Under the pieces are notes generated by a model. It worked only from the letters and a program-made list of their open reading frames with translations, ran no database searches and had not been told where the DNA came from. Shown here piece after piece: positions 51,114-64,000 of a stretch of 64,000 bases of DNA. This DNA comes from an uncultured Gammaproteobacteria bacterium (GTDB lineage Bacteria > Pseudomonadota > Gammaproteobacteria > CAWCPV01), in assembly GCA_963797555.1 (NCBI GenBank), contig CAWCPV010000003.1:544001-608000 (forward strand), in the 5' to 3' direction. Numbering within the stretch: position 1 is the stretch's first letter; every line of letters starts with the position of its first letter. The translations under genes were made by a program, and so were the position numbers.

Positions 51114-51242
51114 GGGAGCTATTTCCTCCGGTGGAAGATGCTGTCGAGCACCATGTGCCTACTCCTTCGCCCGGCGGCCCGTCCGTGCCGCCGCCTATGG
51201 CGAGCCGGGCAGAAACGGTTTCTCGGGGTGCCCATCGCTGCG

Positions 51243-52910
51243 CTAGGGGATGATCCAATCTGTCTCGGGAACGAGCTGGTCGCTGTCGGGAGCAGCAAAA
51301 CGCACGATGTATCCCCCTTTGACGCGAAGCGCTGATTGGGTCCGAGGCTGAGGCGATGGTACATGGCGGTCGCCAAGCGTTTGCTGATCACGTCCTCGGC
51401 GGTTTCCAGGAGATAATCGCGGTGCAGATTCTCCTGCATTTCGTCGAGCTTTTCCGACATGAGAGCGCAGGCGAGATAGGCATCGGTCTGCACTCGCTCA
51501 TCGACCAGTTGCAAATTCCGTTTCTTGAACCAAGTGGAAATGAACGTATAGGCCATGTTCGCGCGCCGCTTGTCCGGAAGCTCGAACGGATACGCCATCC
51601 GCGCCAGCGCCTTCCAGGCAGGTGGGACCGGTGCCTGCTCTCCTCCTGCGAGGATCGCCGAGAAATAGGCCGCCGCGCCCGCGGCCGGCACCTCCGCCAG
51701 CTTCGCCACATCGGCCCCGCGCAGCCAAAATACCAGGACGTCTCCACTTCCCACATCGGCGATAGCTTGCCGCAGCACGGCCGCGTCGACCGTGTGCAGA
51801 ACCCGTTCTTCGAGCGGGATGACCCGACTTCCGCAGTGCCTTCTCCAGCGCCTGAGCAGCCCCGGCGGCGGCCGGGTCATCGCCGCGGATCTGGACCACC
51901 CGTTTCACGCCCGCGTGCTCACCCCGCTCACTGAGCTGATGTGCGAGTATGTGCGCTTCCAGGATGACCCCTTCGGAGAAGTAGACAGGGTAGTAGTCAG
52001 CCGGCGCGACCACCGGAAGATCCACCGTCGGAAACCAGCACGGAATACCCTGCTTCTCGCAGAATTCATGCACCGGCGCCCAGTCGCCCTGCGACAGGCC
52101 CGAGATCAGTGCGAATACCGGCTGGCGCTGGTAGTGGTCGGCGAGCTGCGCCTCCCACGTCTCGGGCGGACCGCTCAGATCCCACACCTGCAGATCCCAC
52201 GAGCGGTAGGTCTTGTACTGGGAGCCGGGGTAAGGCTGCTCGCGGAGCTTGTCGAGCCGCGTCCCCCTGTTCTTGATATCGAAGAAGGTATGCAGCACAT
52301 CGAGCATGGCCTTGCGCTTGGCCGGGTCAACGTCCGGCGTCATGACCGTGGCGAAGCGAATACTGTCCTCGGTGACGCCGGGCGACCATTGCTTCGAAAG
52401 TTGCTTCAGGTAGTCGACCAGAAGCTGCGCGTCGGAATCGCTCAGCGCGTAACGCGGCATCATCCCGTCCAGAGTGACGCCTGACGAGTCCGTGCCTTCG
52501 CGGATCGCGCGCACCAAGGTCTGGTCCGTATAGGGATCGTGCAAGCGGTTCCGGCCGAGAGCGTGGGCGAAGTCCGGACCGCGGGCGCGGTGCAGGTCCA
52601 TCGGACCGCCCGCGGTTGGCCGAGGCTGATACAGGAACCGACCGGTGATGGGCAGAATAATCCGGGTGCCCTCCACCGTGCCCAGCCCACTGCGGCGATG
52701 GCACAGGACGCACGCCGCGAAAGCGCCCGACACCACGACGCCGCCCGGGTGCGCCCCCCGCAGCGGCTCCCCCGAAGGCAACACGCCTTCGCGGTAGATA
52801 CGCTGGGCCATATACCCTCCCGCGGCGGCCGGGGCTTGAGCAGCAGCCGCACTCCAAGCGGGCGCCGCACAAGCCGTCAGCAGCGCACCGAGCAGCACCC
52901 GCACGAGCAT
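51243..52910 (-). CDS. Cytochrome c plus periplasmic binding protein-like fusion (frameshifted near 51830 and 51315)
   Basis: CVLCH...MPRY, then PVFALISG...FCEKQGIPC, ending LSLGPNQRFASKGGYIVRF...WIIP*. Confidence 0.75.
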
Positions 52911-52968: not shown

Positions 52969-53610
52969 TCAGTTGGCCGCGAGGAACTGACGAGTTTCCT
53001 TGACCAGCTCGTCAGGCGGCACGAAGCCCTCGAGCCGCACCCAGGGCTTGCCCGGCGCCGCACGCAGAAACGTCACGGCGACGTGGTTCATCTTGTCCGT
53101 GCGGTACACATCGAATGCCTTCTGCAGCGCAACGCTCGCCTTCACCGTTCCGGTATAGAAGCTCCACTGCGGGCCGGCGTGGAACTTCTTCGCGTACTCG
53201 GTGAGCCGCGCCGGGGTGTCCTGCTCCGGGTCGATGGAGATCGAGACCATGCGCACTTTGCTGCCCTCGTCGCCGAGCCGGCTCTGGACTTGGGCGAAGG
53301 TCTGACTCAGGATGGGGCAGACAGCCGTGCAGGTGGTGAAGATGAAGTCGAGGATCACCGGCTTGCCGTCGTCGATCGCCTTGGGAAAGTCGACCTCGGC
53401 CCCGTCCGCCCGCACCAGCGTCACCTCGGGAACCGTGTAGCCGACCGTGGTCCTTTCCCAGGTGTCCGTCGCCGCCGCCGCAGGATGGTGATGGGCGTGC
53501 GGGTCCTGTGCGGTGTCGCCAACCGCAGCCCCCGAGACCGCCAGCGCAACGAGAGCACCCAGCAGCACCCCGCGGCCTGCGGATCGATTCGAGCGATTCG
53601 GCAGCTCCAT
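52969..53610 (-). CDS. SCO family copper chaperone
   Basis: FIFTTCTAVCP, SISIDPEQDTP, conserved His. Confidence 0.92.
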   Translation of the reverse strand: MELPNRSNRSAGRGVLLGALVALAVSGAAVGDTAQDPHAHHHPAAAATDTWERTTVGYTVPEVTLVRADGAEVDFPKAIDDGKPVILDFIFTTCTAVCPILSQTFAQVQSRLGDEGSKVRMVSISIDPEQDTPARLTEYAKKFHAGPQWSFYTGTVKASVALQKAFDVYRTDKMNHVAVTFLRAAPGKPWVRLEGFVPPDELVKETRQFLAAN

Positions 53611-53622
53611 TTCCGTCTCCTG

Positions 53623-55525
53623 CTACTTGATCTTGATCGACAGGGGTTTCGTCGCGACCAGGGGGGGGCTCTGGCTGTGGTCGGTGACTTGGGCCGTGAA
53701 GCTGTAGGTGCCCGCCGTATTAGGCATGGGCACCCCCGTGATCTTTCCGGTCGTGGCGTCGAGGCTGAGCCCGGGCGGCAAGCTGCCCGCGGCCAGCGAC
53801 CACGCGTAGGGCTTTATTCCACCCTTGGCAGCCAACGCCTTGGAGTACGCCGTGCCGACAGTGCCTGCAGCGAGGGTCGAGGTGGTGATTATCAAGGGAT
53901 CGACGACCACCATGATGGAGAGCGGCTGTGTGGCTTTGCTCCCCAGCGTGTCTTTGGCCTGGACCGTGAAGCTGAACACACCGGGCGCCGTCGGCGTGCC
54001 GGAAATGGCGCCCGTCTTCGCGACGAGACTCAGCTTCGCCGGCAGCGTGCCTGAGATACGCGACCACGTGTAAGGGGGGGTGCCGCCGCTCGCCTGCAGT
54101 ATCTGCTTGTAGGCCACGCCCACGTGTGCGTTCGGGAGAGAGGTCGTGAGGATGCTCACGGGCATCGTTCCGGTGATGTCGGCATAGGCCGCGTACACGT
54201 TGATCAGACCGTATCCGTAGTTGTTGTCCGCCCCGGCCGTGCCCAGGTCCGTTGCGGTGCTCTCGAGCTCTTGCTCGAATCTCGCCCACTGTTAGGGTCG
54301 GGGACGCGCTGAGGAGCAGGGCTGCCGCTCCGGCGACGTGGGGCGCGGAGAACGATGTCCCCGAGACCCAGACATACCCTCCGCCTGGTTTCGCGGTCTT
54401 CACGCTCACGCCCGGAGCCACCGTGCTCGGGAACACGCCATTGAAACCGGGGCAGGCCGAAGTCCCTCGGCTGCTGAAGGACGCCACCGTGTTGGTGCTG
54501 TCGACGGCACCGGCCGAGAACCCATCGAGGTTGTTAGCGGGGCTGATGCTCGTCGACAGGTGCGGTCCGGAATTACCGGCGGAGAAGACCACGACGATCC
54601 CTGCAGACCTCAGCGTCTCGAAATCGCTCTGGAACGTGTTGTCGCAGGTGTTCACCCCGCTCAGCCCCCAGGAGGCATTGACGACGTCCGGAGCGTCCGT
54701 CGTGGTCGAATTCCCATCGGGGTCGAGAAGCCACTGGAATGCCTGGTGGATGATACTGAGCGTCGTGTTGCCGGAGTCGTCGAAGATCTTCGCGGCGATC
54801 CACGTCGCGTCCGGCGCCACGCCGATCGCCGTGCCCCCGGCGCTGCCGCCCACCATGACGCCCATCGTCTGTGTGCCGTGACCGATGGCATCATAGGGGG
54901 TCGGGTGAATCTTGTAGATGTCGAACGGGTCGAACCAGCTATCCGTCCCCCCGCGCCACTTGCTCTGCAGGTCCGGATGGGTGAAGTCGACGCCGGTGTC
55001 CATGTTGGCCACGACGACGCCGCCTCCCCCATCCCCGAGACTCCACACGTCGGGGGCATGAATGTCCGTGATGTTCCATTCCGGCGCCGCGGCGGCTGCC
55101 TGAGTCACTACCGGGGCGCTGACCGTCGAGTCCAGCTCGACGCTCTGGACGCCCGGGAACCTCGTCAGTGCACGTATCAGGCCCGGCTTGGCGGCGACCG
55201 CAATGCCGTTGATGATCCAAAGCGGCGTGAACCGTGCCGCCCCCCCTGCCCGCAGCAGCGCCCTGACCGGGCCCTGGGTCGCATCGCTTTTCGCCCGCAT
55301 GGCCTGGGCGATCTGCGCCCCACGCACATGCTTGTCAGGGGCCCGAAACGCCTTCGGGTCCACTCGGTCCGAAAGCGTCACGATGACCGGTATTTCATCA
55401 TTCGGACCGGCGGACTGGAGTGCTTCGGGGAGAGTCTGCGGAGTCGCGGCCTCCTGGGCGACCGAAACGGCGCCGCAAAGCACCAGAAGCAAACACCCGA
55501 CCGACGAAGCGAAAAGTCTTTTCAT
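53623..55525 (-). CDS. S8 serine protease with C-terminal putative Ig repeats (frameshift near 54275)
   Basis: NMDTG, GHGT, SAGN, GTSFSAPH; two GGxxPYxW...G.ISGTP repeats. Confidence 0.88.
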
Positions 55526-55538
55526 GGTCTGGTCCCGC

Positions 55539-56009
55539 TCATTCCACGACGATGTTTTCCAGCTTGCAGTCCCCGATGACCACGGTGACCTTGCTGCCCT
55601 TCTTCACCTTCTCGAGGGCATTGGAAAACAAGATGTAGTACTGCTTGCCGACCACCGGCGGGTTTCTCACGCTCGCCCGCAGCGCGCCGACGTTGGTATC
55701 TTCCGGCGAGCCCAACGCCGACCGCGTTGCCGGGTCGAACAGGTAGGGCTTGATCCGCTGGTCGAAGAGAGGCCGTGCTTTGACGGCGTCGACCACCTGG
55801 TAGCGGAAATCCAGCATGCGGCCGCCGAACGTTGGGCGCAGAGCCACCGGCTTGATTCCCCAGGTGGCCTCGGGCGACGCGGCAGCGGTCTGAGCGGCCG
55901 ATGCCGGAGCCGGAGCCTGTTGCTGTTCCGCGGGGGCGGCCAAAGCCGGCGCCGCCACCGTCAGGGACGCGAGCGCACAAAGACCTACTACGCTCTCGAT
56001 ACGGTTCAT
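55539..56009 (-). CDS. Secreted hypothetical protein
   Basis: Signal peptide; GGRMLDFRYQVVD...YYILFSN...VKKGSKVTVVIG. Confidence 0.75.
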   Translation of the reverse strand: MNRIESVVGLCALASLTVAAPALAAPAEQQQAPAPASAAQTAAASPEATWGIKPVALRPTFGGRMLDFRYQVVDAVKARPLFDQRIKPYLFDPATRSALGSPEDTNVGALRASVRNPPVVGKQYYILFSNALEKVKKGSKVTVVIGDCKLENIVVE

Positions 56010-56116
56010 AGCCAGGACAGTTGGGCGTCTCACGCGGCCTTCGGTTCATCTCCCTCCCCCGGGTGTCGACCCGGGGGAGAAGAGAGTACGATGGCCCCCG
56101 ACGGCGCCGTCTCCGA

Positions 56117-57580
56117 TCAGCTTGCGGTGCCGTGCAAGGCAACGCTCAGGGTCGGCGTGGGGTTGTTGGTGGTGATGTTCAGGTTCGGCCCACCCGTGTT
56201 CCACTTGTTACCGGCCGTGCCACTGGGCGGCGCGAACCTGACGGTGAAGGTCATGCTGCCTCCTCCGGGGGCCAGGGTGGCCGGCAGCGGAACGCTGGTG
56301 GCGGTGACCGAGTACATGTTCCGGAATGCGGTGGTCCCGCCGGCAATCGTGTAGCTGGACACGAGCCCGGGTACCGTACCGGTATTGGTGACCGTCACGA
56401 CGCCTGTGGTGCAACTGCTCGTCGCCAGACAGTTGCGGGCCGAGCTCAGAACGAGCGGGGTCGGGCTCGCCCCCAGAGTCGGTGAAGCGACAGCCAGGTA
56501 CGCGAGCATGCCCCCGGGCGACAGGCCGTTGTTCGTGAGATTCAGGCGCCGGTCGAAGACCGGGATGTTGCCCAGCGCCGTCGGGGTGAGGATGGCATCC
56601 ATGGTCTTGCCCGCCGGCATCAGCACTTCATACTGCTGCTTGGGAGCGGGGACCACCGCGCCCGACGTGTCGATGGCGGACATGAAGTTCCCGTCCTCGG
56701 CAATGAGAGCCATGTCGGGCCCGAGCACCACGGGCGCCTTGGTCTCGAGGCCCGCATTCAGGAAACGCAGCAGCAGCTTGGTGCCGGGTGATCCGCCCGG
56801 CAGGGGCGCCGCGGCCCCCGTGTACGGCTGCCCATTGACGAGAAAATACTTCGGGTGGTAGTCGGACGTGCTCGTCATCGTGCCCGCCGGCCCGTAATCC
56901 CCGGTCGCAACGGCGTTGTGAAGCACCGGGTCGATCTCGCTCAGCAGCAGGGTCGTCTCGCTGTCGAACGCGCTCGACGGGTCGTCGTAGGCCCGCCCTG
57001 GGGTGGTAGGCAATACCTTGAGCACTCCATAGAGCCCCATCTGCTCCTGGACAGCCGGGTGCGTGCCGCTCTCGATCAGGTACGTTCCCGCCTTGAGGTT
57101 GTTGAAGGTGTACGTCGAGCTAACGCCCAGCGCCGTTTCCGTCGTGAAGGACCGCACCCGTTGCGTGGGGCTCGACCTGGGGCCACAGGGGCCAGTGGTC
57201 CAGCAGGGCCAACTGCCCGGCGTCAGAACAGGCGTCTGCCCGGGAATGACGACCGACACAGGCTCAATGTACAGGCCGCTCAGATCGTTCTCGACGTTGA
57301 TATTCAGCGTATCGCCCTCGACCGCCGTCAGGACCACGGGGCCCCATGGGGTTCCGGGGGCAGGCGCGGTGTAGCCGCTGTCGGTCACGTCGAAGCCCCA
57401 CATCGTGATGTCTGCGGGGGGGATGGTGGGCGCAGCCGCATTGTACGTTCCCGCGGGTATCGTGAACACGTCCGCCCTGAGGTACACATCCACCGTGGCG
57501 GCGGCTGCGTCCCCCGCCGCAACGAGCCCGAGGCATGTCGCCGCGGCAAGTCCTGCGCCGATTCTCTTCATGGTATTCAT
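56117..57580 (-). CDS. Two-domain cupredoxin/MCO-like protein C, lacking copper-ligand motifs, with C-terminal Ig-like domain
   Basis: GPVVLTAVEGD, AGTYLIESGTH..QEQMGLYG, LVNG, LLRFLNAG, PAGKTMDA; no HxH or HCH. Confidence 0.75.
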   Translation of the reverse strand: MNTMKRIGAGLAAATCLGLVAAGDAAAATVDVYLRADVFTIPAGTYNAAAPTIPPADITMWGFDVTDSGYTAPAPGTPWGPVVLTAVEGDTLNINVENDLSGLYIEPVSVVIPGQTPVLTPGSWPCWTTGPCGPRSSPTQRVRSFTTETALGVSSTYTFNNLKAGTYLIESGTHPAVQEQMGLYGVLKVLPTTPGRAYDDPSSAFDSETTLLLSEIDPVLHNAVATGDYGPAGTMTSTSDYHPKYFLVNGQPYTGAAAPLPGGSPGTKLLLRFLNAGLETKAPVVLGPDMALIAEDGNFMSAIDTSGAVVPAPKQQYEVLMPAGKTMDAILTPTALGNIPVFDRRLNLTNNGLSPGGMLAYLAVASPTLGASPTPLVLSSARNCLATSSCTTGVVTVTNTGTVPGLVSSYTIAGGTTAFRNMYSVTATSVPLPATLAPGGGSMTFTVRFAPPSGTAGNKWNTGGPNLNITTNNPTPTLSVALHGTAS

Positions 57581-57594
57581 GGCCTGCCTCCGAT

Positions 57595-59163
57595 TCACCA
57601 GATGTGGCATGGATTGGATAGACCGGGGGCGCCCGGACACACGGCGGCTACGCCTTCGATTGGCAGCACGAGGGCCATCGTAGCCATACCACCGATGAAG
57701 ATGTCATTGGTCGTCAGCTCGCGCTCGTTGTGCGAATGCCACATGTACGAGAGCCCGCCCAACGGGTTCTTGTCGACGTGAATGGTTCCGTCCGGATTCA
57801 GGGGCGGAAGGGCCCCGGGAACCCCCAGGTACGGACTGCCGCCATACAACTGGCCGAACGCGAGCGTGCTCTCGTCAGCCAGCTCTACGGGCAGCGGCTT
57901 GTTATGGTCCGCGCACCACTCGTGGCTGGTCAGGTCGAAACCGCTCCCGTCGGGGGTGCAGGTGTGAGGGTTGATGTCCGTGGTGCCGTAAACGTCCCAC
58001 CCGAGCTTGGCTCCGGTCCAGGGTCCCCAGACGGCGTCCACCGTCTCGCCCGGCACCGACGTGGTGGTGTAGTCCGACACGCCCAGATCCGCAACGGCAG
58101 AGGCGCCCGAGGTCAGAACGGCGGTGCTCAACACTCTGCCATCGCGCGCGATGACCACGTGGTTCTGGCCGTGCGTGTGGAGGGGATGCAGGTCGGCCCC
58201 CGCGCCGACCATCCGCATCAGCACCTTCTCTCCCGGGTGCATCTGCGGCCAGCCGTTGTAAGGCTGAGTCGGAAACTGCGAGGCCACCGGGTACAACGTG
58301 CGGTCGGTAGGGTAGCCCGTCTGCAGGCTCGGCGGATTCGGAAAAGTGAGGGTGTCCGGGAAGTTCCGCCCGTTGATGAACCAGTCCGTGGGATGGCGCT
58401 GGGTCATGTCGATCTGCGTGAGCCTCGCTTGGATGGCAGGGACCGTCCTGGGGGACGCCTGGGTCGCGAAAGCCACCTTCTGGTGGATCACCGGGTCGGC
58501 GTCCGACAAGAAGAAGAGATACTCACGGTCGTAGTACGTCGACGCGTCGCCGTACGCCTGGTTCGGAATGACCGTGCAATTGGCCCCCGCGCAGACGCCG
58601 CCCACCGTCGGGCGCACGATGATGGTCCCCGCGAGCCCCATCTCGTCCTGCAGATCCGGTTGCGTCCCGCTGTAGTAGATGTAGGTTCCCGGCTGTGAGG
58701 CCGTGAATCGGTACGTCACGGTGCCGGTGGTGGTGTTCGGGGCGGCCGCGCCTATCTCACCCGTCAGGATGCCCGGGGTGCCCTGGTTGCTGCCCCCGCC
58801 TCCAACGGCCGTGCCCACAGTGGCGTTCAGGCCGGGGAACACGATCAACGTCGGGACCGGCAACTGGTTGCGGAGGTTGATGGTAACGTTCGCACCCTGA
58901 TTGACGATGACCGTCGGCCCCGGGGACTGCATCCGGTTGGGACAGGTCGTCGTGCTCGCGCACAGGGCATAGCCCCACATCCACATGCTGTCGCCGTCGC
59001 CGGTGCTGATGGCGTCGGCCTTGGCCATGAGGTTCACGGTCACGTTACCCGACGTGAGTACGCGGCCGATGATCGTCGCGTCCGCGACCTTCGGGACCAG
59101 GCCCGCGATCATAGGCAGGAGCAGGGCTCCCCACCTCGCGTTCATCTTGAATGACTTGCCCAT
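57595..59163 (-). CDS. Two-domain MCO protein B, copper His motifs only in domain 2
   Basis: PGPTVIVNQG; domain 1 lacks His; domain 2 has HPLHTHG and YMWHSH. Confidence 0.8.
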   Translation of the reverse strand: MGKSFKMNARWGALLLPMIAGLVPKVADATIIGRVLTSGNVTVNLMAKADAISTGDGDSMWMWGYALCASTTTCPNRMQSPGPTVIVNQGANVTINLRNQLPVPTLIVFPGLNATVGTAVGGGGSNQGTPGILTGEIGAAAPNTTTGTVTYRFTASQPGTYIYYSGTQPDLQDEMGLAGTIIVRPTVGGVCAGANCTVIPNQAYGDASTYYDREYLFFLSDADPVIHQKVAFATQASPRTVPAIQARLTQIDMTQRHPTDWFINGRNFPDTLTFPNPPSLQTGYPTDRTLYPVASQFPTQPYNGWPQMHPGEKVLMRMVGAGADLHPLHTHGQNHVVIARDGRVLSTAVLTSGASAVADLGVSDYTTTSVPGETVDAVWGPWTGAKLGWDVYGTTDINPHTCTPDGSGFDLTSHEWCADHNKPLPVELADESTLAFGQLYGGSPYLGVPGALPPLNPDGTIHVDKNPLGGLSYMWHSHNERELTTNDIFIGGMATMALVLPIEGVAAVCPGAPGLSNPCHIW

Positions 59164-59179
59164 AGCGCTCCTCCTCACT

Positions 59180-60596
59180 TCACACTGGTGCTGGCGATAC
59201 GACGATCTCGGTCATCATGCCCCCGAAATCTTCGGCGTCGTTGCTGAGACGGTTGAGATTCGTGGTGTAGATGAAATAGGTCCCCGGTGCGACGCCGGTG
59301 GTGTCGAGCAGCACGTCCACCCCTTCCCCTCCCCCGAGGGTGACGGAGGCTCGTCGCATACGAGGTGTTCACCCCCGTCGGACCGCGCAGGAGCTGCGCG
59401 CCCTGCCCCACGATGCGCATCGGGATGCCCAGAACCCGGAGCGTGGAGAAGTCCACCGTGTTCAGGCTGGACAGATGAATCAGCACGCGCTGACCCGCCG
59501 CGATCGTGGCCGGCTGCCGGGTCCCGGCGACGATGGTCATGGGGATCGCGGGCATCGGCTGGGACGGGTTGCCGTTCTGGTTCATGATCGGGTCCGGGTT
59601 GACCGTGTCCGGATAGCCCCTTCCATTGAGCAGGAGGTAGGTGTCGTCCATATCGCTGAAGCTGATCTTGTTGTAGCTGCCGTCCGCGTTGTGGAAGACC
59701 GGGTCGAAGCCCGTCTCCTGAAGGAAGTACATGACGTTGTACCCGGTGGTGCCGCACAGATTGAGGTTCGGCGTCGGACAGTCGTCATAGGCGAACGTGC
59801 TGTACGTCATGCCGTTTATCACGTCCACGACGAAAGTCCCGTCCTGGGCGGGAAGGATGTACAGATTTCCCAGCATGCCCATCTGCATGTGCTCGGCGGC
59901 CTCCACGTGGCAGTGCCACATGTAGGTGCCGGGGAACTCGTTCCGGTAGAAGTAGGTGAGGCTGCTCCCCAGGTTGATGCCGAAGGACGCCGTCGGCTCG
60001 CCGTCGAACTGGGAGGCGGCGTTCGGGAAGCCGTGGTAATGGACCGTATGAGGGTCGAAGAGATCCGGGCGCTCGCGGAAGCCCGTGTTGGTGAGCGTAA
60101 GGTACAAGTCCTGCCCTTCCTTGGCGAACAGTGTGGGCGCGGAGAAATTGGCGCCTCCCAGCGGATATCCGGACGAATCGGTCGGATTGCCTCGGACCTC
60201 GATCTCGTTTTGCGCGACATTGGTAACGTCGGAGAAGCCGAAGATGTAGATGTCGTTCCCGTCCGCCATGTTGATGTGGCCGTCGCCGCAGGTGATGGCT
60301 CGGCACACCACGGCGGGGTCCGTGGTCGCCCCCGAGGGCTGGCCGGTAACCGGGTCGATCTGCACCTTGCAGTTATCGAAGGCGGGAGCGCCCGGGTCCT
60401 GGCAGTTGGGGTCGGTCGAATTGGATGGGGTCTTGGGGTCGAACGTGCAGACCCCCCCGCATGCGCCGGTATCCGTGTTCTGCGTCAACAGCGGGTCAGG
60501 ACACTGGTACTGGAGGGCCGCACTCACCGGCATCGCCGCAGCGAGCAGCAAGAGGCCGGGCACACCTACCAAGAATCTGTTCCTCTGAATCGTCAT
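59180..60596 (-). CDS. Two-domain MCO protein A, T1 and His motifs only in domain 1 (frameshift near 59350)
   Basis: HTVHYHG and YMWHCHVEAAEHMQMGM; domain 2 has no HxH. Confidence 0.8.
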
Positions 60597-63500
60597 GGTC
60601 TCCTCCTTCGGGTGGTCAGGCCCGCCGTGCCGGCGGGCCTGACTCTCCCGTTGCCTCTGCTGCTAGGGGGTTGGTCGACGTGCCCGTGACCGTCACGGAG
60701 ATGGCCGGCGGTGGCGTCGCTGCTCCGAACGGGTCGATGAGCACTGTCGCAGTCTTCGGACCCGCAAGCACCGCGGTCGTCGGCGCGAAGGTGACGGTGA
60801 CCGTCACGTTCCCTCCCGCCGGGACCGTCCTGTTGATGGGCCCCGAGGTGAACTGGTTGGGGCTCAGTCCAGGTCCCGCCGGTCTCGTCACCGTGAAGGC
60901 CACCGTGCCGCTCGTGTTGTTGTGCACGTTCACCAGCATTGACGTGCACGACGCGGTTGCTGCGCAGTTTCTGGGTATTCGGGAACGCGAGGCTGAGCGG
61001 CGACACGGTCAGGGGCGGACCCGCCATACGGGGCGCCGCCGTCTGGTCCGCACCGATGTCGATCGGCGCAGCCCGCGTGTCCTGGTCGAAGTCGAGGGTC
61101 TGCAGCGGCGGATACTGGATCGCGCCGCCCGCCCTCACCGCGGGCGAGAAAGTATCTCCCGGGATGTGGTGGTGTCGGGCCACGAGACCGTTCGGCGTGA
61201 AGGTGGCCACGACGAAGTTGCCCAGCGCCGCTCCCTTCGACGTCGCCGTATAGGTGTTGAAGTAGCTCTGAGGAACAGCGGATCCGTCCCGGTGAGGTTG
61301 GTCGGGTGGCGGTGGCGCCATCGGCGGCCGTGAGGATGGAGTACGTGGGGCTCATCGTCTACACCGGCTCGCCCCGGTGACCGTACCATGAGATCGCAGT
61401 AAAAGTTCGCGCCGAGCGTCGGCCCAGGCGCCGGGGCCGCGGGACAGTGGTTGTCGCTGCAAGGAGGGCACCTAGGCCATTGTTGGCGGTGGCGCACCAG
61501 TAGAACGAGCGGTTCTGCCAGACAATGTCGTCCACCAGGACCGGGTTGGAGATTCTGACACTTCGGGTGCTGTAGTTGGTAGTGCAACTCGAGCCAGCGC
61601 GATCACGCGAGCTCGGTGCTGTTGAGCCGTGGCCGTGATTCCACCGACCTGCGGTGATCGAGTTCGTCAGTCCGCCGGCAACCTCTGTAGGCGGACATTG
61701 CGCACCCGGCAGTGCCGGGGGCTCCGGGCAAGGGCCACCGAAGGCATCGGAGCTGGTGGCAGTGCTGGCGTTGTTGCGCGACGGTATTGCTGACAGCGAA
61801 TATGTTCACCGTGTCGTCGAACGCCATCCCGCCGCCCTGGTCGGCACTCGAGTTGTTGACGACCATGTTGTTGAAGATCTGGATCTGGTACCACTGGCTC
61901 GGATCGGCCGGATTGTTCGCCACGTCCAGACCGTTGACCTTGAGGGTCCGGATACCGCCGCCGTCGTCCCCGCCCTTGTTGCCCTGGATGAGGTTGCGGT
62001 TGACTACGACCGGGCCGGCGCCGTAGCTCAGCAAATCCGGCGGGACCGGCAAGTCGCCGGCGATGTGGAGCCCGCCTCCTTCGTCGAAGGACTCGTTGGA
62101 AACGAAGATGTTGTCCTGGATCAGGGACGTGTTGCCGGTCGTCGGACTCTTGAGGCTCAGGCCGAAGTGCCCGAGGCCTCCGCCGTACTGGGCCGAGAAG
62201 TTGGCGCAGACCATGTTGTGCGTGACCTGGTAGCCGTCGGAGCCCGCGTACAGCGCCATGCCGCCGCCGCCGCTGAACAGGCTGCCGTTCTTCGAGATGC
62301 GGTTGTGGTCGATGACCAGGTCCGCATTGAAGTTGCTCCCCGTCAGGTTGCCCGCCGTCCCGGCCAGAGCGCCCTCGCCGACGCGGATGCCGCCGCCGAT
62401 GCCGCCCTGGTTGGCGAAGACCTCGTTGTTGCTGATCGTCAGGTTGGGTGCGAAGCCGTTCACCAGGATGCCGCCCCCGGCCTCGGTCGCGCCGGTGATG
62501 GTCAGCCCGTCGATCTGGGCGTGCGCCCCGGGGCTGGAGAAGTCATTGCCGGTCGTGCAGCCGGCGGTGAAATCACATCCCGCCACCAGGATGCCGGCCC
62601 CTTGCTCCAGGGTGAAGTCCGAGGCCTGGCCGGGGACGATGCCGATGGCAGTGCTCGCGATCAAGCTCTGGACGGAGCCCGGATTAGTGAGGTCGCGAAC
62701 TGCCAGTCCTTGAGCGCGAAGTTGCCGAGCGCGGCGGTGCCGTCCAGGATGGTGACGGCGGCGCCGAGCCCCTGCAGGGTGATCGGCTTCCACAAGTTGA
62801 CATTCTCCTGGTAGCGGCCGACGCCCACCATGTTGTCCGGAGTCAGCACAACGATGGCGCCATTTTTCGCGGCGTCGATGGCGGGTTGGACTACCCCGCA
62901 CGCGATGCCGACGCAATTCGCGGCCGGGGGATCGACGACGAGAACGTCACAGGCGCTGCTGTACCCGCCGGGGAGACAGGAGACCGCACCAGCGCTCACC
63001 GCGTGCAGGGTGACCCCCACGGTCGAGGAGAGGCCGTTGTCCGCGGTGACCACCAGCTCGCCCGAGAGGCCGCCGGGGACGGTTGCCGTGATGGCGCCGT
63101 CGGCCCAGCCGGTGACCGCGATCGGCGTGCCGCCGACGGTCACGGTGCCGCTGCCTTGCGCTGCCCCGAACCCATGCCCCGGGACGGCGGTGATGGTGAT
63201 GCCCATACCCGTCGCCGGGATGATCACGTCACTCACCTGCTGGATCTCCGGCGTGCCGGCGACATAACTGCAGTTGACCGGTACGGGGTTCGTCACGAAG
63301 GCCGAAACCGGCAGCACGATGGTGTCGATGAACGTGGTCCGGCCGGGATAGAACTCCCAGTTCTCCCGGATCACTTCCTGGCTGTACGCCGGGTTGAAGA
63401 ACGGGTCGGTGATCCACTGGCCCGGGTCGGAGAGCGGGAGTTCGTGGATCGGACCCGGATCGTTCGGGGCGATGGTGTACATCTGCAGCACCAAGCCGAC

Positions 63501-64000
63501 GGGAATCGGCGGCGCGATGTCGTAGTTCGCCGGGACCAAGCCGTCGAAATGGCCCCACTGGTCGGTGTAGAACCGGGCGACCTCCGTCCCCTTCCAGTCC
63601 TTGATGGCGACCGGCAGGTAGGGCACCGCGAGGTTGCCGCTGGCGTTGGGGCTGTCCGGCCTGAACTCGAGCGCCAAGTCGTTCCAGACCGTACCCCAGA
63701 TGCGGGCCGCCTTGGGGACGAACGTGAACAGGTTGAAGTCGGTGGTGCCGTCGTCGCCGGGGTTCAGCGAGACTTCCTTCATGTTGCAGCCGGCGGCCTG
63801 TAAGCCCGGTACCCAGGGACCCAGGTCGCTCACGCTGGTGTCGGTCTCCACCATCTGGTCCGGGAACAGCGTGTGGTACTGCGGCACGTCGTAAAGCGGG
63901 CCCACGCAGTCCGGCAGCTCCTTCAGGAACGGGATCTTCGGATCCCCGAACTCGATGTTGCGGTCGCCCCACGAGACGACCTTGTAACCCGCCGGCGGGA
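60593..64000 (-). CDS. Very large secreted protein with IPT/TIG, right-handed beta-helix and Ig-like domains (5' end outside window; several frameshifts)
   Basis: GHGFGAAQGSGTVTVGG (IPT); VQPAIDAA, YQENV, IDGLTITG, GGGI/NN repeats (beta-helix); IDIGAD; split across ORFs 62661-63905, 61603-62916 and 60593-61355. Confidence 0.75.

Follow-up and report, generated by a model that had tools for sequence, protein, structure and literature searches.

The closest structurally described relatives of the proteins considered here are the homotrimeric two-domain multicopper oxidases (2dMCOs) of Nitrosomonas europaea (3g5w) and of metagenomic origin (mgLAC, 2zwn). In both enzymes, domain 1 carries an HxxHxH motif and an HCH...H...M motif, and domain 2 carries a second HxxHxH motif and an H-x-H without Cys. 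A single chain supplies all 12 ligands, so that the homotrimer contains three sites. We take the N. europaea-like enzymes to be the 'type C' two-domain multicopper oxidases (MCOs). To our knowledge, the trinuclear cluster of every characterised MCO derives from one gene product. In 2dMCOs this cluster lies at the seam where domain 1 of a subunit meets domain 2 of its neighbour, as is stated for one 2dMCO in PMC11761707. Here we describe a locus on the minus strand of a 64-kb window (the whole stretch of DNA analysed, to whose positions all coordinates refer) of the uncultured gammaproteobacterial genome G000. Three tandem genes, A, B, and C, encode proteins with the same two-cupredoxin fold, but the domain-1 ligand set is found in A and the domain-2 set in B. 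As the sets are confined to A and B, with none in C, each trio can hold at most one site.

Nmar_1354 of Nitrosopumilus maritimus (PDB 9cck) has been called a 'heterotrimer' of 2dMCO subunits (PMC11761707). As described there, its alpha-alpha-alpha' arrangement comes from a single gene, the subunits differing in whether a pendant cupredoxin domain is present, and each subunit has the full set of ligands, unlike A, B, and C. Nmar_1354 aside, the literature searched, judged in part by title and abstract, contained no heteromeric or heterotrimeric MCO relevant to this locus. The closest described gene cluster is that of Sideroxydans lithotrophicus ES-1, which contains three tandem cupredoxin/MCO genes, small hypotheticals, SCO1/SenC, and a MofC-like cytochrome (PMC5566968, PMC12016527). 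Its gene content (Slit_1812-1818) matches that of the window cluster, a likeness drawn from the published description and not from direct alignment. He et al. 2017 predicted the ES-1 proteins to be extracellular without inferring a function for them (PMC5566968). Keffer et al. 2025 reported canonical MCO motifs for Slit_1817 and Slit_1818, described Slit_1816 as larger, without the motifs, and bearing adhesin-like and polysaccharide-lyase-like domains, and noted similar clusters in Paraburkholderia, Ralstonia, Anaeromyxobacter, and Steroidobacteraceae (PMC12016527). The words 'trimer', 'heterotrimer', and 'AlphaFold' are absent from the main text of that paper (PMC12016527). In two loci from Sideroxydans metagenome-assembled genomes (MAGs), L076 and L082, A is ~504-517 aa, B ~504-511 aa, and C ~1980 aa. 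Together with the published description, these loci suggest that Slit_1816-1818 correspond to C, B, and A, respectively. The gene cluster has thus already been published for ES-1, while the split site is apparently not described in the literature searched.

Domain 1 of A contains two ligand motifs. The first, HTVHYHG (60030-60050), fits HxxHxH and supplies a T1 His and two trinuclear His. In the second, HCHVEAAEHMQMGM (59874-59915), two further trinuclear His flank the T1 Cys and are followed by the remaining T1 His and Met. Both motifs aligned when A domain 1 was compared with domain 1 of 3g5w (2e-11), pairing HTVHYHG with HTIHWHG and HCHVEAAEHMQMGM with HCHVNVNEHVTM. Pfam matches to Cu-oxidase_3 (PF07732, 1.2e-9) and Cu-oxidase_2 (PF07731, 9.3e-8) were also found. 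Among orthologues, H-x-x-H-x-H was invariant (76 of 76 filled rows), as were H-C-H with the distal His (78 of 78) and the last Met (80 of 80). The would-be H-C-H position of domain 2 reads Y-T-T. The invariant T1 site (His, Cys, His, Met) occurs in domain 1 of A only. Two further features of A orthologues were an invariant Y-N-D-G-D-G-S-T-x-Y-D loop between domains 1 and 2 (alignment positions 200-210) and a conserved Cys pair in the N-terminal extension. The loop could be a Ca2+ or substrate-metal site, and the Cys pair could form disulfides of the kind found in secreted proteins.

The B gene (57595-59163) starts with ATG at 59163, with GTG at 59178 as a possible alternative. It encodes a two-domain cupredoxin protein with a Pfam match to Cu-oxidase_3 (PF07732, 1.7e-12). 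Its domain 1 aligned to domain 1 of 3g5w and 2zwn with the His and Cys replaced. Domain 2 carries HPLHTHG (58168-58188), which aligned to the corresponding domain-2 motifs HAIHTHG (3g5w) and HAMHSHG (2zwn). It also carries WHSHNE (57724-57741), an H-S-H in which Ser stands in place of the Cys of T1-bearing domains. The surrounding YMWHSHNE aligned to WMIHDHVDT (IHDH) in domain 2 of 3g5w, although this sub-alignment is weak (1.3 bits). The three His of HPxHxHG and the two of H-S-H were invariant in 82 of 82 rows, and the Ser in 70 of 70.

C (56117-57580) is a ligand-less paralogue, comprising two cupredoxin domains (~57508-56465) and a C-terminal Ig-like domain (~56458-56117). Of the characteristic motifs it has just a fold motif, QEQMGLYG (57026-57049), and its Pfam cupredoxin match is sub-threshold (0.03). 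Its profile nevertheless aligned to residues 28-274 of 3g5w (4.2e-14), covering both domains with each ligand position replaced; Ser or Gly occupies the position of the T1 Cys. No His or Cys column was conserved at 80% or more across the 76 rows of the C alignment. Comparison by hhalign related C to B (E 6.9e-55, 31% identity over 256 columns) and to A (E 3.9e-23 over 286 columns spanning both domains). Each chain therefore has two cupredoxin domains, as in 3g5w-like MCOs. The sequence-only reading of this DNA had assigned A a T1 site and half of the trinuclear ligands in domain 1 alone, B ligands in domain 2 alone, and C the fold motifs without copper ligands; all three assignments hold. It had also described C as Ig-anchored. 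Here, the match of the C-terminus to choice-of-anchor D (NF012200) falls below threshold (26.8 bits against a cut-off of 45, E 5.7e-6), and in most lineages C has the entire X module instead, as described below.

To determine how far this division of ligands extends, we collected related loci. A scan with B, using one genome per species, gave 559 pattern matches; 230 of them code for a relative, and the top 80 of these 230, along with the same-class genome G010, formed a set of 81 loci. Their record titles include Geobacteraceae, Myxococcales, Anaeromyxobacter, Geothermobacter, Sideroxydans, Gallionellaceae, Rhodoferax, Paraburkholderia, and Ramlibacter, as well as Verrucomicrobiota, Lentisphaerae, Kiritimatiellia, Planctomycetes, Acidobacteriota, Nitrospiraceae, Methylomirabilota, and others. 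In a collection of 5.8 billion proteins, the names given to such proteins are generic ('FtsP/CotA-like multicopper oxidase', 'multicopper oxidase domain-containing protein'). An A-like open reading frame (ORF) precedes B in 80 of the 81 loci; the one exception begins at the edge of its contig. Downstream of B, 77 loci have a C-like ORF, and in the remaining four the contig ends. Fusions of A to B or of B to C were absent from all 81 loci.

The distribution of ligands was the same throughout, to a degree that chance would not come near to producing. A has four trinuclear His, B has four, and C has none, such that the complete set of eight exists only in A and B together. No A, B, or C orthologue in the ~80 loci carries both the domain-1 and the domain-2 sets. 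Such constancy of the split across ~80 loci and many phyla rules out local decay as the cause of the ligand loss. The alignments likewise bear out the earlier proposal that domain 1 of A and domain 2 of B jointly supply eight His and one T1 site.

We then modelled a complex of intact A and B from G010, using alignments of 69 and 70 rows. Only this pair was modelled. The median ipSAE was 0.79 (runs of 0.83, 0.79, and 0.78), compared with 0.42 for the best of three controls. Of the solved complexes, 58 of 80 attained the mark passed by this pair, as did 2 of 110 mismatched pairs. Contacts agreed between runs to at least 96%, and partner pLDDT was at least 88. On the A side, the confident interface includes H112 and H114 of HxxHxH, residues 158-164 just past HCH, and the invariant GGG loop of domain 2. 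On the B side, it includes P240, H242, H244, and H381 to R384. Five of the eight candidate trinuclear His (H112 and H114 of A; H242, H244, and H381 of B) are thus predicted to meet in a single A-B seam. The sequence-only reading had anticipated an A/B interface that brings the His together, and the model is consistent with one.

A fourth conserved component, X, was missed by that reading. X is a giant secreted adhesin-like protein whose C-terminal two thirds occupy 60616-64000 on the minus strand, as established from Pfam matches and a frame map against the L014 and L015 orthologues. The gene starts outside of the window at ~65366 (from L093, to ~5366). Its Pfam domains are SdrD_B, CarboxypepD_reg, PL4 fn3_3, TIG, a right-handed beta-helix, and an ASH/Ig end. 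Homologues were found in 72 of the 81 loci, and the nine in which none was seen are mostly short contigs. X is a near-universal partner. The X module lies in frame with the C-terminus of C in 35 loci and with the N-terminus of A in nine. It is separate in the others, located upstream of A (23), downstream of C (3), or elsewhere (2). Its domain signature is the same whether separate, A-fused, or C-fused. By Rosetta-stone logic, that certain lineages fuse X to A while others fuse it to C is evidence for A and C belonging to one assembly. The membership of C is suggested mainly by these fusions, and also by synteny and paralogy.

To examine the origin of the three proteins, a quick maximum-likelihood tree was built from 49 rows. 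A, B, and C contributed 14 sampled rows apiece and a two-gene relative three, and four complete 2dMCOs were taken as the presumed outgroup. A, B, and C each formed one clade (SH-aLRT 100, 97, and 100), with B and C as sisters (85). Taken with the profile comparisons, this indicates that the three proteins are paralogues of long standing, related to an N. europaea-like two-domain MCO. Complete 2dMCOs also occur in same-class genomes (L003, L004, L006, and L009), with HTIHWHG and HCH in domain 1 and HxIHTHG and HDH in domain 2. One of these outgroup members, L004, comes from the unpublished genome G039, which also supplied a 3-domain-like match (L012).

The two-gene relative divides its ligands between two proteins. 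It is present on the plus strand of L094 (G018:C1; 5005-6006 and 6025-7023) and in L005 (G002:C9; 1384-2412 and 2464-3360). The first G018 protein (333 aa) begins with MNRRNFLKF, which looks Tat-like by eye, and its ligands are in domain 2 only (HSVHFH, MHFH). The second (332 aa) lacks a signal peptide and has ligands in domain 1 only (HTIHHHG, HCH...H..M). As only one subunit bears a signal, export would be as a pre-formed heteromer, the signal-less partner of this heteromeric two-domain MCO seemingly 'hitchhiking' through Tat after assembly. The tree places the 'B-like' proteins of this relative, those with domain-2 ligands, as sister to B and C (91). Together, the tree and the two-gene relative suggest a stepwise history. 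A complete homotrimer would first have given rise to two genes with complementary losses, after which the gene with domain-2 ligands would have duplicated. The duplicate facing a dead seam would then have lost its useless ligands, resulting in the three-gene form.

Our data suggest that A, B, and C probably form a pseudo-threefold ring with a single T1/trinuclear site shared by domain 1 of A and domain 2 of B. This is the heterotrimer with one active site put forward in the sequence-only reading. It is now supported by the invariant split and the A+B model, with the place of C drawn from synteny, paralogy, and fusions. The ligand split and its conservation, the paralogy, the synteny, and the fusions are shown by the sequences, and the A-B interface in the ring is modelled; we infer the 1:1:1 stoichiometry, the position of C, the copper content, O2 reduction, and the substrate. 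Of three inter-subunit seams, only that between A domain 1 and B domain 2 would be catalytic. A domain 1 would give the T1 site (His, Cys, His, and Met) and four His, with the other four given by B domain 2. C would take the third position and close the ring, with its domain 2 opposite B domain 1 and its domain 1 opposite A domain 2, both of which lack ligands. Electrons would pass from substrate to the T1 copper of A, and via the Cys-His bridge to the shared trinuclear cluster, where O2 would be reduced to water. The ring would be tethered to X, the giant adhesin-like beta-helix protein. Judged by eye, every part has a signal peptide of its own. Copper would be loaded outside of the cytoplasm, aided by the cluster-encoded SCO1, and the MofC-like cytochrome would serve as redox partner.

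The remaining genes of the locus are consistent in order with those of two orthologous loci, L014 and L015, which share the arrangement X-A-B-C-small-S8-SCO1-MofC. A, B, and C are three separate ORFs, each with its own start and signal-like N-terminus (Sec-like, judged by eye). The gap from the A stop to the B ATG is 16 nt, and that from the B stop to the C ATG is 14 nt. Directly downstream of C on the same strand is a small secreted protein of 164 aa (55539-56033), with tblastn matches in 28 of the 81 loci. It has no Pfam or NCBIfam match and no obvious His/Met motif. Among its nearest ESM Atlas clusters is one that bears the automatic name 'Copper(I)-binding protein' (score 0.96), which we regard as a lead only. 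Next are an S8 subtilase (to ~54245) with He_PIG Ig domains in another frame (53623-54198), together spanning 53623-55525 on the minus strand; an S8 homologue occupies the same position in 15 of 81 loci. These are followed, also on the minus strand, by a SCO1/SenC copper chaperone (52969-53610; Pfam 8.4e-22; CxxxC at 53314-53340) and a MofC-like protein (51119-52910) in which a cytochrome c (CVLCH, 52698-52712) is fused to a periplasmic-binding-protein domain.

Several observations weigh against the proposed ring. In the model, H154 and H156 of A and H379 of B fall outside of the listed contact set. The control in which chain 1 was swapped for an unrelated protein still reached 0.42 with 173 contacts, and, since homotrimeric 2dMCO structures exist, the A+B result may reflect likeness to solved structures and not genuine binding. 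Homology of the H-S-H of B to the trinuclear H-x-H consists of the 1.3-bit sub-alignment and its position. SCO1 and MofC-like genes were seen in 3 of the 81 fetched loci, which is an undercount, as the 6-kb flanks often end inside the giant C. Record titles include Desulfobacterales, Kiritimatiellia, and Sedimentisphaeraceae, all of which we take to be strict anaerobes. Such lineages are odd hosts for an O2-reducing enzyme and argue against one universal role in aerobic Fe(II) oxidation. Finally, five certain frame breaks occur within ~14 kb of the locus (one in A, three in X, and one in the MofC-like gene), along with one probable break in the S8/Ig gene. This window's copy may consequently be mis-assembled, decaying, or non-functional.

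The break in A also revises the sequence-only reading. The ORF it quoted (59175-60596, 473 aa) is frame-broken, becoming Arg-rich after ...GVNTSYATS, and the true C-terminus lies elsewhere. The head of A (59349-60596, minus strand) runs from the signal peptide and a Cys-rich N-terminus through cupredoxin domain 1 and includes the greater part of domain 2. The final strands of that domain (59180-59347, minus strand) are carried in another frame (SVTLGGGEGVDV...GGMMTEIVVSPAPV, also SVTLGGGEG...GGMMTEIVVSPAPV) to a stop at 59180-59182. One extra base at ~59348 accounts for the break. Close relatives (P0002, with 74% identity, P0004, and the A of G010) are unbroken across this site. The claim that domain 2 lacks copper ligands survives, as it does so even when A is read through the break. 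The breaks in X are at ~62667, 61773, and 61290 (relative to the L014 and L015 orthologues), and that in the MofC-like gene is at ~51800-51870. The S8 gene runs into junk text followed by an out-of-frame He_PIG (~54200-54290), hence its probable break.

One explanation is that, irrespective of the family's role in other genomes, the genes at this particular locus are decaying into pseudogenes. Because profile searches of G000 gave no match for rpoB or rpoC, other large genes were used as a gauge of frame breaks. Five were intact (secA, gyrA, dnaE, uvrA, and carB), while mfd (C3, ~510800) and a second dnaE-like gene (C14, ~280016) were each split into two frames. Two breaks across these seven large housekeeping-type genes (~19 kb) mean that the density is higher at the locus, which favours decay. 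In contrast, the break in mfd shows that the assembly disrupts conserved genes elsewhere. The assembly comprises 20 contigs, one of 1.03 Mb, yet is 84.6% complete, and this combination of contiguity and completeness suggests indel errors. B, C, the small protein, and SCO1 are single, intact frames, and the broken genes are otherwise free of in-frame stops or deletions relative to orthologues. A is 65-68% identical to its L015 and L014 orthologues across the break. Of the sampled words, 5-6% occur in three soil-metagenome runs of a single study, and no RNA run was listed as containing them. Contigs from the three runs gave no cover of 59180-60100 and did not settle the break in A. A GC3 phase scan of the window did not separate gene boundaries from frame breaks. 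On balance, we consider decay of this copy rather unlikely.

A second explanation retains the trinuclear site shared by A and B but assumes another stoichiometry (AB2, A2B, or higher), with C outside of the ring as an inactive adaptor to X or the cell surface. The modelled complex contained A and B only, the two-gene relative apparently closes its ring with two gene products and no C, and fusions to X involve C more often than A (35 of 81 loci). However, C keeps both cupredoxin domains at full length and is the sister paralogue of B, and it follows B in every locus not cut by a contig end (77 of 81). The nine A fusions demonstrate that X is not specific to C. Moreover, a ligand-less third position is what would be expected after the losses in B domain 1 and A domain 2. 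These considerations make an alternative stoichiometry unlikely, and we favour the A/B/C ring.

Least probable, and in our view very unlikely, is that there is no trinuclear cluster, A being a blue-copper electron carrier in its own right, the His of B binding metal in some other way (storage, sensing, or mononuclear), and the trio serving as an electron-transfer/adhesion module: occurrence in presumed anaerobes and a neighbouring cytochrome that could be the real electron sink would fit, but the invariant His positions are exactly the eight of a trinuclear cluster, four lie on each of the two domain types that oppose one another in solved 2dMCO trimers, the model places the motifs in one interface, and A keeps an H-C-H triad for which we know of no role other than wiring T1 copper to the trinuclear cluster.

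The A/B/C ring would likely oxidise a substrate outside the cell, probably a solid or a metal, for example Fe(II)/Mn(II) minerals. Naming Fe(II), Mn(II), or iron bound in minerals is the least secure step of our proposal, as it draws on the ES-1 proteomics and the taxa involved. Keffer et al. reported that Slit_1816-1818 were more abundant on magnetite than on Fe(II)-citrate (PMC12016527). MofA of Leptothrix and OmpB/OmpC of Geobacter, for which extracellular metal redox has been proposed, also neighbour a MofC-like cytochrome and SCO1 (PMC5566968), as does the window cluster. He et al. stated that the three tandem MCOs are not homologous to MofA or OmpB/OmpC (PMC5566968).

The arrangement also bears on larger MCOs. 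Six-domain enzymes, such as ceruloplasmin and MnxG of the Mnx complex, form a pseudo-threefold ring of six cupredoxins with one trinuclear cluster at one seam. Compared by description, these are single polypeptides, with several T1 sites in ceruloplasmin, whereas the trio described here comprises three polypeptides and one T1 site. Nakamura and Go reportedly proposed an evolutionary scheme in which two-domain homotrimers led to six-domain enzymes that have one cluster. We tentatively propose, as a possibility that falls short of a probable one, that the family constitutes an ancient and widespread four-part extracellular machine: a split-site ring on a giant adhesin, oxidising solid-phase or metal substrates such as the Fe(II) of magnetite, and a living intermediate between homotrimeric two-domain and six-domain MCOs.

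If correct, the split site would represent a new quaternary design for MCOs, with ligands divided over two genes and accompanied by a ligand-less third paralogue. It would also provide a present-day example of how two-domain homotrimers could have given way to single-cluster enzymes of six domains. Any single 'MCO' gene of the Sideroxydans cluster would be expected to yield an inactive protein when expressed alone. Members of the family are present in iron oxidisers, metal reducers, and numerous uncultured lineages, and induction on magnetite in ES-1 makes the family a candidate for extracellular mineral or metal oxidation.

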